Virus record (IMG/VR): IMGVR_UViG_2541047918_000004 | DNA: 47,091 nt | DNA from: a virus | Taxonomy: Duplodnaviria; Heunggongvirae; Uroviricota; Caudoviricetes | Strand: one strand, 5' to 3' | Shown here: piece by piece, positions 43,793 through 46,908 of the stretch | Numbering within the stretch: position 1 is the first letter of the stretch | Layout: each line of letters starts with the position of its first letter | The notes under the pieces: generated by a model | Database searches by the model: none | What the model was told of the DNA's origin: nothing | Seen by the model: the letters and a program-made list of their open reading frames with translations, nothing else | Translations under genes and position numbers: made by a program

Positions 43793-44887
43793 TTAACTGA
43801 CACCAGAATCATCATAACCGCGACTTGTTATAGCTTGCCTGTATGCGTTCATTTTGCGTTCTGCGTACTGGACAACATCTTTAATGACAAGCTTATGAAC
43901 AACTGAAATAAGGTCATTTATATAACAAAAGTCAGGTGACTTATTTTTCACTGGCAACCAAATAACATCGTCCTTAATTTTTCTATTACTAACACTATCC
44001 CCCCATGAATATTTATGTGAAATAGACCTATAAATACATGAAATAATGCCCAAATAAGCAAACTTTGTCCTTCCATCCTCATTGTTAACATAGAGTCGCA
44101 AATTATGACTGTCGTTTGAAAAAAAGTCTCGCTCCTGATAAGTTACAACGAATGTCTTACCACCAATAAAAATACAGTTCCCTTTTTCCAAGAGTGAGTC
44201 ATCATAGGCGATATAAGAACTAACAGAGTTATTATCACGGCTAGCACAAAGATAAGGAACATCCCCACTATTTTCTATGATGTCTCTAGACAATATGTTT
44301 CCTGTATTGCACACTGAGAATAACTCAGTAACAGGAAAGCCTGAAAATTCAATATTTTTAAAATGTTCCAGGATAAGATAATCTTTTTCCGTTAGTTGGT
44401 AATCACTCAGCCCAGCAGCTATCAGGTATGCTTCCAGCTCTTCTATATGGGCCGCTTCCAGCTCTTCTATATAATTATCCATAAAAAACCAGTCAATTTC
44501 ATTATTTTTCACTGGTAATGAGATGAAATATTCTCCATCTCTGAGTTTGGAACTCGATAACTGTTGACCATAATTAAAACGCCCCTTTAAAGCTTTATTA
44601 ATCATACTGGCAACATACAGTCCGCGCTTTGCATTAAAGTCGGACTTACTTGATTTTAATGTAAGAACATGCACCTTCATTTCTACGCTGGCACAATAAG
44701 GATGATAAAAAGCATCTCCAAAAAAATTAACGCTTATAAAATTTTCATAATGCCTTGCATCATCCATAAACTCGGTATCAAACTCTCCGATGATACCGTT
44801 TTGATCGCTCTTTGCTGAAACACGTTTGATTTTGCCTGGTTTTAATCTTCCTGAGGAGATAAGCGAGCCTGTGCTCACATAGAACAA
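43793..44887 (-). CDS. Restriction-modification specificity (target-recognition) subunit, BcgI-B/HsdS-like
   Basis: 364-aa AT-rich ORF 60 nt downstream of the methyltransferase gene; central tandem 8-aa repeat (IEELEAAH-IEELEAYL) reminiscent of central conserved repeats of HsdS-type subunits; size close to BcgI B subunit. Assignment is by context and architecture. Confidence 0.5.
   Translation of the reverse strand: MFYVSTGSLISSGRLKPGKIKRVSAKSDQNGIIGEFDTEFMDDARHYENFISVNFFGDAFYHPYCASVEMKVHVLTLKSSKSDFNAKRGLYVASMINKALKGRFNYGQQLSSSKLRDGEYFISLPVKNNEIDWFFMDNYIEELEAAHIEELEAYLIAAGLSDYQLTEKDYLILEHFKNIEFSGFPVTELFSVCNTGNILSRDIIENSGDVPYLCASRDNNSVSSYIAYDDSLLEKGNCIFIGGKTFVVTYQERDFFSNDSHNLRLYVNNEDGRTKFAYLGIISCIYRSISHKYSWGDSVSNRKIKDDVIWLPVKNKSPDFCYINDLISVVHKLVIKDVVQYAERKMNAYRQAITSRGYDDSGVS
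44431..44472. repeat. In-frame 18-bp exact duplication at 24-bp period inside the specificity gene
   Basis: cttccagctcttctatat occurs at 44431..44448 and 44455..44472. Confidence 0.8.
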
Positions 44888-44946
44888 ATCGCCAATCCTG
44901 AACTCTCCCCACTCAACGCTTCTTAATTTATCGCTGAGCGGGGAAT

Positions 44947-46908
44947 TTACTTTCCCGCAAAATTGTTTTCACCTTGTTTTTTCAGTAATTGCGAGACCTC
45001 CCATGCAAGGTAATCACCTACCGTCTTTTTGAAATCCTCCAGCGTTGGCCTAGCATCTACTGGCCTGGTCTGATTCCAGTCCTCACCACTATCAGGATCG
45101 ATTGTTCCCTCAAAATATTCATCCTCCGTAAAGATATTAAGGCAACCTTTCCCGAAGTGAACCAGATCCACAACCTCCTGATAACGCTCTTTTGCACGAT
45201 CGGCATCAACAAGATTGTTTCTTGCCTTTTTGCGATTAGAGCGAGCGTAGCCGTCATTGGAAAAGTCGATAAACTTAACAGCCTGTTTCGCGTTATGCGG
45301 AATTTTTACCTGAAAAACGTAAATGTACGTCTGAACGCTTGATTTACCAATAAACAGATCCGCAGGCATTTTGATGCTTGCCAGCAAGGTATTTTCCTTG
45401 AGTATTTTTTTGTTGTACTCCGTAGCCTTTCCTGTGCCAGCTGAACTCTGGATAATCACTGCAGCATAGCCTTTATCCATCATCGACAGCGCCTTCTGCA
45501 CGAAAATCATGCCGTTACCTTTAGCTGAATACGGAGGATTGAGAATAAATGCGTCCGCAGGGAATTTTTCTCCTGTTTTCCCAAATCCATACTTGCCGTC
45601 AAAATCGGCCAGCGAGTCTTTATTGAGGATATTCGAGCTACCATCCCCCATCAAAATCATATTCAGGATGGCCAGCATATAAATACTGGATAACACCTCA
45701 AGGCCAAGAAGCTGTTCAGCCTTGATTTGCGCTTCCTTAAGTTGTAGTTCGTTCGGTGAGTGAATATTTTCTCTGGCGTCAATGAGCATTTCATTCATTG
45801 CAGCCACAAGCAATCCCGCAGAACCTGTAGCAAAATCCCACACATAGGAATCTTTGTTTACTCTGGCGAGTCGTGCCAGCAATGTGGCAACATAAGGTGG
45901 TGTCAGAACGACGTCATTGAGCTTGTCCTGCGTAAATCCAAGCCAGCGATACATCTCATTAAACAGTTTGCCCGTAAAATCGGTGGTCAGTCCAATTTTG
46001 TAATACTCCCCAAGATCATCAACAACTTTAACAAACACGCGCTTTAACTGGCTTTCACCGTTGACTGGTTTGTTAATGTTTTCAGTCCACAGCGTATTTT
46101 GCAACGAGCGCAAAATCATTTCTCTTTTTGTTTCAGGAACAGCTTTCAGCCTTAAAAAATTCCTTATTTTCCTGAAAATAATATCACCATCACGCAAGTC
46201 CTCCTCCGTTGAAGAGGTCAGTTCTTTTTTATCCAGCGGTGCTAACTTTCCCGGAATCCCCAACGTTGCAATAACGGTAGCCACAACAAGGTAAACACGA
46301 TCGCTTTCACCAAGCCCCTTTTCATTCTGGTAAATATCGTTATTCAGACGGGAAAGTCGCGTGTCTATCTCTTCCTCTTTGCTGGCCTTGATTTTTTCCA
46401 GTTCTTCGGGAGGAAGATTAAGCAGCTTTATCTTGTTGAGAAATCCATCAACATTTTTGTCAGCAAGGAACGATAAGTCGGTGAATTCACCAACCTTCTG
46501 TCCGGCTCCTAAATTATTCTTTGATACGTACCACACGCCGATTTCATGATGCAGTTCGCCTGTATCATCATCGCGCCAGCCGGTCATACCAATAGCAATA
46601 ATATCAGGGTAATTGGTGAACTGAAGAAGTGCGTTGGCATAATGGACTGCGCCATTCACCGCGTATCCATTAATATTTTTAAAATTCCATTCTTTTCTGG
46701 CATCTTTGTTCTCAATAATACCGTTGCTGCCAAGTCTGATAAGCCTGTCCTTGTAGCCTTTATACTCGATGAGAACGGGATACTGCTTGCCGTATTTGTC
46801 CTTAACAAGGAGTTTTACGTCGGGACGATTACCGCCTGCGCCGCCATTTTTCGAAAAATAAGCGTCCAGTGCGTTATCGATCTCTCCGTTAAGTGATGCA
46901 TTCTGCAA
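44947..46908 (-). CDS. Fused restriction endonuclease / N6-adenine DNA methyltransferase (Type IIB BcgI-A-like, or Type IIG-like); 5' end probably lies beyond the window
   Basis: Gamma-class methyltransferase motifs: motif X/I ...VLTPPYVATLLARL...DFATGSAGLL and motif IV FILNPPYSAKG. N-terminal PD-(D/E)xK-like motif RPDVKLLVKDKYGKQYPVLIEYKGY. The track start is a TTG with no ribosome-binding site, and the frame remains open upstream through the heptanucleotide repeat to the window edge. Confidence 0.65.
   Translation of the reverse strand: MQNASLNGEIDNALDAYFSKNGGAGGNRPDVKLLVKDKYGKQYPVLIEYKGYKDRLIRLGSNGIIENKDARKEWNFKNINGYAVNGAVHYANALLQFTNYPDIIAIGMTGWRDDDTGELHHEIGVWYVSKNNLGAGQKVGEFTDLSFLADKNVDGFLNKIKLLNLPPEELEKIKASKEEEIDTRLSRLNNDIYQNEKGLGESDRVYLVVATVIATLGIPGKLAPLDKKELTSSTEEDLRDGDIIFRKIRNFLRLKAVPETKREMILRSLQNTLWTENINKPVNGESQLKRVFVKVVDDLGEYYKIGLTTDFTGKLFNEMYRWLGFTQDKLNDVVLTPPYVATLLARLARVNKDSYVWDFATGSAGLLVAAMNEMLIDARENIHSPNELQLKEAQIKAEQLLGLEVLSSIYMLAILNMILMGDGSSNILNKDSLADFDGKYGFGKTGEKFPADAFILNPPYSAKGNGMIFVQKALSMMDKGYAAVIIQSSAGTGKATEYNKKILKENTLLASIKMPADLFIGKSSVQTYIYVFQVKIPHNAKQAVKFIDFSNDGYARSNRKKARNNLVDADRAKERYQEVVDLVHFGKGCLNIFTEDEYFEGTIDPDSGEDWNQTRPVDARPTLEDFKKTVGDYLAWEVSQLLKKQGENNFAGK

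Follow-up and report, generated by a model that had tools for sequence, protein, structure and literature searches.

A probable BcgI-like restriction-modification module, with a heptanucleotide repeat tract at the start of its nuclease-methyltransferase gene, found as cargo among the late genes of a 933W-like prophage

The window analysed here, meaning the whole 47,091-nucleotide stretch of viral DNA, contains two co-oriented minus-strand genes (A and S below) that an earlier note, made from the sequence alone, had described as an AT-rich, BcgI-like restriction-modification module. Both ORFs exist, the larger one lying at 44947-46908 on the minus strand with a length of 653 aa when counted from a TTG codon. 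The module has a GC content of 41.0%, and its S gene 36.2%, versus 52.1% in the remaining window, so it is indeed AT-rich. The features discussed below are as follows.

43700..43725, minus strand: terminator-like hairpin and T-run, from a consensus scan only, about 70 nt past the S stop codon
43793..44887, minus strand: S (specificity) gene, 364 aa, with the layout TRD1-CR1-TRD2-CR2
44426..44470, minus strand: 24-nt repeat that keeps the frame, within CR1, the central conserved region of S (IEELEAAH-IEELEAY; two copies here)
44947..46998, minus strand: main part of the A (RM) gene, following the tract and encoding nuclease, helical connector, gamma-class m6A methyltransferase and C-terminal helix
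45529..45837, minus strand: methyltransferase core, with motif I DFATGSAG (45814-45837) upstream of motif IV NPPY (45529-45540), the gamma-class order
46471..46995, minus strand: N-terminal PD-(D/E)xK nuclease domain of A, its fold supported by a model
46819-46821 (D), 46765-46767 (E) and 46759-46761 (K), minus strand: candidate catalytic codons, D-X17-ExK
46999..47091, minus strand: (GACCAGC)n tract in the 5' coding region of A, with 13.3 perfect copies visible, cut by the window end

The hairpin at 43700..43725 is the first minus-strand terminator-like site 3' of the PR'-like promoter in a related complete locus (L001), and judged by its sequence it is a candidate for the end of the module transcript. 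No promoter for the module itself was identified.

The motifs that had been read in A by eye are all present. In the numbering of the 653-aa ORF these are P29-D30...E48-Y49-K50, DFATGSAG (358-365) and NPPY (457-460), and the nuclease D...ExK, DFATGSAG and NPPY are invariant in A homologues of 72-99% identity. The best-scoring profile, REase_MTase_IIG (PDLC03616) from the REBASE-derived PADLOC set, matches A over its full length with E=3.6e-228, while a Pfam search returned N6_Mtase (E=4.3e-21, residues 328-463) and, weakly, VRR_NUC (residues 5-57). The TIGR00497 hsdM model scores 36 bits on A versus a cut-off of 243. Weak matches to the MAD2 profile (25 bits versus a cut-off of 720) reflect the shared methyltransferase core only, and the partner genes are absent, so we rejected membership of A in a BREX or MADS system. 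PDB sequence searches with A, S and a profile of A retrieved no matches.

We also generated predicted structures for A. The full-length AlphaFold model has low confidence (pLDDT 64), as no usable homologue falls below 70% identity to the query, and we therefore relied on the model of the N-terminal domain alone, in which the approximately 175 additional N-terminal residues of A fold as a PD-(D/E)xK nuclease. In BcgI, Glu53 in the PD...ExK motif is essential (PMC3592470). The whole A model, with low pLDDT in its methyltransferase part, ends in a lone terminal helix at residues 652-673, and its top Foldseek match is EcoKI M (2y7c_B), with BsaXI RM (692 columns, E=2e-7) and BpuSI also retrieved. 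RM+S Type IIB enzymes have an EcoKI-M-like methyltransferase fold with a lone C-terminal helix at the end (PMC11997821), and on this low-confidence model A may belong to the same group. The A gene is maintained, as shown by dN/dS values of 0.05-0.20, among them 0.05 against an allele at 80% nucleotide identity; each of the 26 related E. coli loci fetched and examined has an unbroken frame 3' of the tract.

S was confirmed as the specificity-like second subunit that it had been taken for. Pfam Methylase_S matches it in two stretches (E=3.2e-19), PADLOC Specificity_II matches it with E=6.5e-21, and a profile built from S homologues matches the HsdS structure 1ydx with E=6.8e-7. Within the alignment of S proteins, the TRDs are variable and the CRs conserved. 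The 24-nt repeat of S has two copies in most loci, three in L007, L011, L024, L025 and Salmonella, and four in L020, and it is one of two further variable repeats in the S genes of relatives, the other having an 8-nt unit. In several relatives S is split by the octamer tract or by IS1. In the HsdS subunits of EcoR124I and EcoR124II, the copy number of a short in-frame central repeat alters the spacer of the bipartite site. The unit in S is 8 aa (24 nt) versus 4 aa in those proteins, and by analogy its copy number may affect specificity as well.

The architecture, a nuclease-methyltransferase fusion with a separate HsdS-like subunit, supports a BcgI-type assignment. Two features of the RM+S group are present, namely a PD-(D/E)xK nuclease and a gamma-class N6-adenine methyltransferase in one chain, and a separate subunit with the TRD1-CR1-TRD2-CR2 layout. 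As to sequence homology with the BcgI subunits, PADLOC profiles of 637 and 341 positions, whose source enzymes are not stated, match with E=4.6e-44 and 6.5e-21, and automated notes name BcgI alpha. The architecture, the lack of hsdR in every context examined, the REase_MTase_IIG and Specificity_II matches, the nuclease fold and the alignment to BsaXI and BpuSI bear out the earlier note's identification, and the sequence evidence supports a BcgI-like restriction-modification system, with the two-sided cleavage of Type IIB enzymes suggested by analogy. BcgI itself (Type IIB, A2B) shares with the module the N-terminal PD...ExK nuclease joined to a gamma-class m6A methyltransferase in one chain, the separate HsdS-like subunit and the lack of a translocase; its subunits are similar in size to A and S, as had been pointed out, and one phage record labels its A copy 'BcgI alpha chain-like'. 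BcgI is chromosomal in a Bacillus and not known as phase-variable, and the likeness is one of architecture rather than of direct sequence comparison. To our knowledge, BcgI has no repeat tract. BsaXI, a Type IIB enzyme of (RM)2S composition whose structures were solved by cryo-EM (PMC11997821), likewise consists of an RM fusion and a separate S, and aligns with A over about 690 columns in Foldseek. However, it has no HMMER-detectable sequence similarity to A, and its RM subunit of approximately 915 residues carries a 'knob' and a 'paddle' which the 680-residue A cannot hold.

Other classes fit less well. An ordinary Type I system, a plain HsdM with hsdR just upstream, was one outcome that the earlier note had set against its own proposal. 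No hsdR was found in the 27.7-kb prophage context, in other prophages, on the Neisseria chromosome or on the 7.9-kb Providencia plasmid, and A, unlike HsdM, has a nuclease domain. The single-chain Type IIG/IIL design (MmeI, BpuSI type) was also rejected, as A ends in a short helix after the methyltransferase and a separate S follows, which was the case in every context examined. A and S are found on their own in prophages, on one Neisseria chromosome and on the 7.9-kb Providencia plasmid.

The earlier note had further suggested that the module occupies the position of Q, the tRNAs and stx. There is no Q gene within the window, as it said, nor any tRNA, but Q lies approximately 1.2 kb beyond the window end, and in three genomes stx1c, stx2 and stx2b come immediately after the module. 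The order in complete genomes is Q - hok - module - (tRNA Ile/Arg/Arg) - (stx or nothing) - nanS-p - lysis genes. Because relatives carry the module upstream of the tRNAs and stx1c, stx2 or stx2b, it is extra cargo and not a replacement. Its place is in the late region of a lambdoid prophage resembling 933W, with Q/hok on one side and the tRNA/stx/nanS-p slot on the other.

The large gene had been taken to begin at 46908, and here our reading departs from the earlier note, which missed both the true start of A and the heptanucleotide tract, the most unusual feature of the locus. Upstream of the TTG the A frame stays open through the tract to the window end at 47091. The tract was read directly from the sequence and is reported by Tandem Repeats Finder with period 7 and 100% matches; it encodes the peptide repeat PATSDQR in every frame. 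Between it and the TTG, which is 29 codons into the post-tract frame, there is no other ATG, GTG or TTG, and those 29 upstream codons align with the conserved N-terminus of A homologues. The 25-29 residues that they encode (EPxIxxLANxWLKSYxLDYK) hardly vary among E. coli, Neisseria, Providencia and Nitratifractor, and within the nuclease domain they make up helix 10-23. The TTG itself lacks a good Shine-Dalgarno sequence in front of it. In 26 related loci an ATG that would lie outside our window precedes the tract in the leader AAAGGA-N8-ATG CTG CCA, and this leader (AAAGGA-N8-ATGCTGCCA) is kept even in the allele at 80% nucleotide identity. A tract-less relative starts at the same codon, with GGGAGGA-N7-ATG (MLPNQRPTNKSRK). 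Judged from these comparisons of sequence, A does not really begin at the 46908 TTG. Diverged alleles and Salmonella have kept both the leader and the tract. RefSeq has a 653-aa HsdM from the TTG in most genomes and a 739-aa read-through protein in one.

As separate observations, the tract breaks short-read assemblies, and in RefSeq it yields a spurious opposite-strand 'YXWGXW repeat-containing protein' and conceals the A start, the gene being annotated as a plain HsdM.

Across the 26 related loci the copy number of (GACCAGC)n ranges from 16 to 120, and loci without a single SNP across 4.8 kb of flanking sequence are 2-52 units apart. One-third of tract lengths put the well-placed ATG in frame with A, while in the two wrong frames stop codons follow immediately 3' of the tract. 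The three frames are represented 7/10/9 times, with the well-placed ATG in frame in 7 of the 26 loci; copy numbers come from single assemblies and six tracts are interrupted, so individual ON/OFF calls are unreliable. An 83-copy allele recurs in four genomes, which shows that the tract is not unboundedly unstable. The window itself displays the last 13 repeats only. Two hallmarks of contingency genes are thus present: a repeat unit that is not a multiple of three, within coding sequence and 3' of an ATG with a Shine-Dalgarno sequence, and a copy number that varies between otherwise identical loci, with early stops in the wrong frames. By its sequence, the tract looks like a slipped-strand contingency switch that would turn A on and off at random. 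Against such a switch, ON-state A would bear a PATSDQR extension of 37-280 aa on its nuclease domain, and re-activating a fused nuclease-methylase in an unmethylated cell should be dangerous.

Genes of two further methyltransferase families in Enterobacterales likewise begin with this heptamer, which may therefore be a recurrent or portable restriction-modification switch. Among species-representative genomes the heptamer is common in unrelated GC-rich taxa, with no A homologue at those loci, and a protein search with PATSDQR for other tract-bearing families returned fragments only. The closest parallels are with genes already described. Similar to A, neuO (the capsule O-acetyltransferase of E. 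coli K1, carried by prophage CUS-3) is prophage cargo with a heptanucleotide repeat right after the start codon; its tract is read as a heptad peptide repeat, one tract length in three gives full-length translation, and it is OFF in 65.6% of complete genomes (PMC13001214). In contrast to the tract of A, its unit is AAGACTC with 3-53 copies versus 16-120, and neuO is a capsule-modifying enzyme of a different phage and locus. M.Eco131I, a phase-variable Type III mod of STEC, has the same heptamer, and its tract length varies within STEC populations (Atack et al. 2018, PMC5909438). Unlike A, it is a Type III Mod with the motif GCCATC and the leader Shine-Dalgarno GAGGGAA; that survey covers Type III genes only and does not describe the A gene. 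We did not locate the published STEC Type III mod gene among complete genomes, and found no description of the A gene in literature on the heptamer, the octamer, BcgI with Stx prophages, or phase-variable Type IIB/IIG enzymes; the text of a survey of Type I repeats has no mention of E. coli. Cj0031 of Campylobacter jejuni differs from A and S in that a recognition domain is built into its single chain and its tract is poly-G, and in being chromosomal rather than phage-borne. Like A, this phase-variable Type IIG enzyme is a fused nuclease-methyltransferase, and its expression is gated by a simple-sequence repeat (PMC4889913).

Other explanations for the tract and the module were weighed against this evidence. 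Were the tract a 5' untranslated region, with translation starting at the 46908 TTG, the enzyme would be constitutive and the repeat a neutral microsatellite. The prevailing RefSeq annotation agrees with this, as does the roughly even spread of upstream frames, which is expected without selection on frame. Nevertheless, we consider it improbable, given the near-invariant nuclease-domain helix encoded upstream of the TTG, the poor ribosome-binding context of that codon, the start of the tract-less relative at the upstream ATG, the leader kept in the 80%-identity allele and the read-through protein in RefSeq. About equally improbable, in our estimate, is that the module only methylates, as an M+S pair of Type I kind with an inactive nuclease, and protects phage DNA or acts as an epigenetic regulator rather than restricting. 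RefSeq and Pfam see HsdM/N6_Mtase only, a late-operon location would suit the methylation of progeny phage DNA, and phase-variable methylases are often regulators (PMC5909438). However, the D...ExK motif and the whole nuclease domain are under purifying selection, the nuclease fold is supported, and the best-scoring profile is a full-length nuclease-methylase fusion.

We give slightly less credence still to the view that the module is decaying cargo, a defence remnant on its way to becoming a pseudogene with the repeat tracts as symptoms. It would account for the minority of loci with the good ATG in frame and for the split S genes of several relatives. Yet the intact post-tract frame of A in every related E. 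coli locus examined, its low dN/dS, and the retention of leader and tract in diverged alleles and Salmonella all argue for a maintained gene, and one-third ON is the fraction seen in proven contingency genes such as neuO. The reading we favour, and think probable, is that A and S together make up an autonomous restriction-modification system of BcgI type ('RM + S', Type IIB/IIG), carried as prophage cargo, with A gated by (GACCAGC)n.

By comparison with BcgI and BsaXI, an A2S complex would bind a bipartite site, methylate the host's own DNA and, where incoming DNA is unmethylated, cleave it to either side of that site at fixed distances. The coding sequence of A runs from the ATG outside the window straight into the hypermutable tract, whose length sets whether that ATG is in frame, so that slipped-strand mispairing would switch the whole enzyme stochastically. 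There may be three levels, depending on whether the frame is entered from the well-placed ATG, from a poorly placed ATG or from no start codon at all. The outcome would be a phage-borne contingency defence locus. More tentatively, and with a likelihood that we put a little short of even, three independent tracts may diversify this Stx-type prophage Type IIB system in E. coli and Salmonella: the 7-nt tract gating A (possibly at three levels), the 8-nt tract toggling full-length and half-length S in some S alleles, and the 24-nt repeat perhaps setting the spacer.

Contingency genes driven by repeats are not a feature for which E. coli is known. The published E. coli cases that we found are neuO (PMC13001214) and one Type III mod gene (PMC5909438). 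If the three-tract reading is true, no phase-variable Type IIB/IIG system would have been described in Enterobacteriaceae before this one, and the module would be a defence, borne by phages, in which a clone randomly re-draws activity as well as specificity. A randomly switching restriction-modification system on Stx-type phages would affect the entry of phages and plasmids into lysogens, and hence the spread of stx phages. It could also alter genome-wide adenine methylation in pathogenic and commensal strains, including isolates from healthy people, which would leave clonal populations epigenetically mixed.

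The module comprises two co-oriented open reading frames, for a large nuclease-methyltransferase protein (A) and a small specificity protein (S), as the earlier note had described, together with a heptamer repeat in the 5' coding region of A:

43793-44887, minus strand: S ORF, 364 aa
44947-46908, minus strand: A ORF, 653 aa when read from a TTG
46999-47091, minus strand: perfect tandem repeat (GACCAGC)n in the A 5' coding region, 13.3 copies, the distal tract end only as the window stops inside it

The GC content of the module is 41.0%, versus 52.1% in the remaining window, which bears out its description as AT-rich. 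The pairing of a nuclease-methyltransferase with an S protein is a well-known restriction-modification architecture. Against Pfam, A matched N6_Mtase (E=4.3e-21) and, weakly and at its N-terminus, VRR_NUC, and S contained two Methylase_S stretches. The PD...ExK, DFATGSAG and then NPPY motifs of A are invariant in homologues of 72-99% identity, and by motif order DFATGSAG before NPPY is the gamma-class arrangement, so the earlier reading of both motif types held. The REBASE-derived PADLOC profiles placed A, over its full length, in a Type IIG nuclease-methyltransferase fusion family (E=3.6e-228), where another fusion profile, 637 positions long, matched too (E=4.6e-44), and assigned S to "Type II specificity subunit" (341-position profile, E=6.5e-21). 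A profile of S retrieved the HsdS structure 1ydx (E=6.8e-7); in the S alignment, the recognition domains are variable and the helices of the two conserved regions, CR1 and CR2, are conserved.

The earlier note had also named the case that would make this an ordinary Type I system, a plain HsdM with hsdR just upstream. The NCBIfam hsdM model scored A at 36 bits, far under its cut-off of 243, which rules out a plain HsdM. The predicted full-length model of A is poor (pLDDT 64) and its top Foldseek rank is still EcoKI M, yet about 690 columns of this low-confidence model aligned only with BsaXI (Type IIB) and BpuSI, the two matches that also have an N-terminal nuclease. The same low-confidence model has a lone terminal helix (652-673), a feature reported for the "RM + S" Type IIB group, BcgI included (PMC11997821). 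BcgI is an A2B assembly in which Glu53 of the PD...EXK motif is required for cleavage (PMC3592470). The model of A residues 1-205 (pLDDT 79.7, pTM 0.80) shows an alpha/beta nuclease core in which D begins one strand and ExK lies in the following one. A and S occur alone in lambdoid prophages of E. coli and Salmonella, on a related metagenomic contig, among housekeeping genes of the Neisseria flavescens chromosome, and on a 7.9-kb Rep3/Mob plasmid of Providencia with little other cargo. No hsdR was found in any of these settings, and the Type I alternative therefore fails.

The structural genes of the window share 93-96% identity with their counterparts in Stx2a-converting short-tailed phages. 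Of 5426 complete E. coli genomes, 30 contain the module, in the order Q, hok, module, (tRNA-Ile/Arg/Arg), (stx or nothing), nanS-p esterase and holin/lysozyme; PhiR12_3, an induced phage of ECOR13, has it at 99.8% identity. The claim that it stands instead of Q, the tRNAs and stx did not survive: Q lies about 1.2 kb past the window end, and directly 3' of the module are stx1c in 2013C-3033, stx2 in OkiPb01692 and stx2b in 04-00955. By gene order, the module is thus extra cargo added upstream of the stx slot. In consensus scans, a PR'-like promoter was located at the end of Q, and the first minus-strand terminator-like site past it lies just after S (43725-43710), which weakly suggests that the late promoter may transcribe the module even without Q. 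A full-length match to the gammaproteobacterial sRNA STnc100 (Rfam; 43390-43606, minus strand; 150.6 bits against a gathering threshold of 47, E=1e-33) lies in the gap between S and the nanS-p esterase gene. Relatives that keep the tRNAs (loci L002, L003, L008-L010, L016, L020, L021 and L023) have a 114-nt pseudogene fragment annotated "site-specific DNA-methyltransferase" between S and tRNA-Ile/Arg/Arg; the window has neither the fragment nor these tRNAs. In the related locus L001, an annotated 100-aa BsuBI/PstI-family Type II restriction endonuclease fragment (22981-23283) adjoins the prophage repressor gene and is possibly a remnant of a second restriction-modification system.

The frame of A is open from the TTG at 46908 up to the window end. 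The 29 codons 5' of this TTG encode ...KSVEPEITELANSWLKSYRLDYK. These residues align to an N-terminus that hardly varies among the Neisseria, Providencia and Nitratifractor proteins, and in the predicted model they make up the opening helix of the nuclease domain. No in-frame ATG, GTG or TTG occurs between this conserved region and the tract. Complete loci carry AAAGGA-N8-ATG CTG CCA directly before the tract, and a tract-less relative, situated directly after Q, reads GGGAGGA-N7-ATG CTG CCA AAT CAG CGA CCA ACA (MLPNQRPT...). By this comparison the ATG preceding the tract is therefore the genuine start, 46908 is not, and the tract is an expansion within codons 4-6 of A. RefSeq places the "HsdM" start at the internal TTG in the same records. 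Opposite the tract, most RefSeq genomes have an annotated "YXWGXW repeat-containing protein" or "hypothetical protein" (L001 15590-16207; the window counterpart begins at 46989 on the plus strand). As the length of this ORF follows that of the tract, the annotated protein is almost certainly spurious, produced by the heptamer repeat.

Among 26 related loci, the tract has 16-120 copies, with 100% repeat identity in 20 of them; copy numbers come from single assemblies, and some tracts are interrupted, possibly by sequencing errors. As the unit is 7 nt, changes in copy number shift the frame, and only every third length brings the well-placed ATG into frame, giving predicted A proteins of 812-966 aa with the nuclease motif included. 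A second ATG, 8 nt upstream, serves the second frame with no usable Shine-Dalgarno spacing, and two loci have ATA in its place; for the third frame there is no start codon. Stop codons lie immediately 3' of the tract in both wrong frames. The three frame states are found in 7 (well-placed ATG in frame), 10 and 9 loci. Loci whose 4.8 kb of flank shows 0 SNPs are 2-52 units apart: 83 copies in G6/7 against 99 in G8, and 31, 64, about 72, 56, 83 and 58 in six O111-type loci. Four genomes of different origin (L001, L009, L013 and L026: G6/7, an O111:H8 bovine isolate, UCPROB-002 and PhiR12_3 from ECOR13) share a count of exactly 83 copies while sibling strains differ, so the tract, judged from these lengths, is unstable yet has not erased shared ancestry. 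Many IMG/VR contigs and one Salmonella contig terminate inside the tract; short-read assemblies therefore break there. Compared with an allele that has 80% nucleotide identity and also carries (GACCAGC)n, the body of A has a dN/dS of 0.05; with a closer allele the value is 0.20, and by these ratios the gene body is under purifying selection.

The specificity gene varies among relatives as well. CR1 contains a 24-nt in-frame repeat (IEELEAAH), which the window has twice, L007, L011, L024, L025 and Salmonella three times and L020 four times, and S alleles exchange recognition domains. One allele group (L019-L023 and L175; not the window) has a perfect octamer tract, (CGCGGACT)n, of 15-29 copies just after CR1, which splits S into two half-genes, annotated "subunit S" and "hypothetical protein", unless in frame, which is the case in L020. 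The octamer gives the system a second candidate phase-variable tract. By analogy with Type I systems, we infer that such changes in S should alter spacer length or give half-S specificity. In strain 2015C-3121 (L019), IS1A lies between A and S (2148-2845), and the assembly has a long poly-C run in the heptamer tract, probably an assembly artefact.

Phase variation of restriction-modification genes by repeats is known, as described for a Campylobacter Type IIG enzyme among others (PMC4889913). Within E. coli, the nearest precedent is the CUS-3 prophage gene neuO. It has a 5' heptanucleotide repeat, every third repeat length leaves the gene ON, and 65.6% of complete genomes have it OFF (PMC13001214). 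In STEC, a Type III mod gene was reported to contain the identical heptamer, given as CAGCGAC[n], whose length varied within populations; that gene was called the first phase-variable methyltransferase of pathogenic E. coli (PMC5909438). The literature searched, with incomplete coverage, yielded no description of the A gene, its tract or the S-gene tracts. In Pectobacterium carotovorum DSM 30168 (L058 6520-7659), (GACCAGC)17 follows the ATG of an adenine methyltransferase of the EcoRI_methylase family (PF13651, E=1e-130) immediately and in frame. With A and the published mod gene, three unrelated DNA methyltransferase families in Enterobacterales thus carry the heptamer at the 5' end, as read from these sequences. 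Runs of at least 5 copies also occur in many unrelated GC-rich bacteria (species-representative genomes, L051-L170): individual Planctomycetota MAGs have dozens of such loci, and Streptomyces, Gemmatimonadota, Marichromatium and Paracoccus gave hits too; no A homologue was found beside the runs of that scan.

The heptamer tract of A appears to behave like a contingency switch. In the mechanism we propose, the module would be expressed in lysogens, an A2S complex would methylate its bipartite site and cut unmodified DNA on both sides, and slipped-strand mispairing in the tract would switch the system stochastically ON and OFF.
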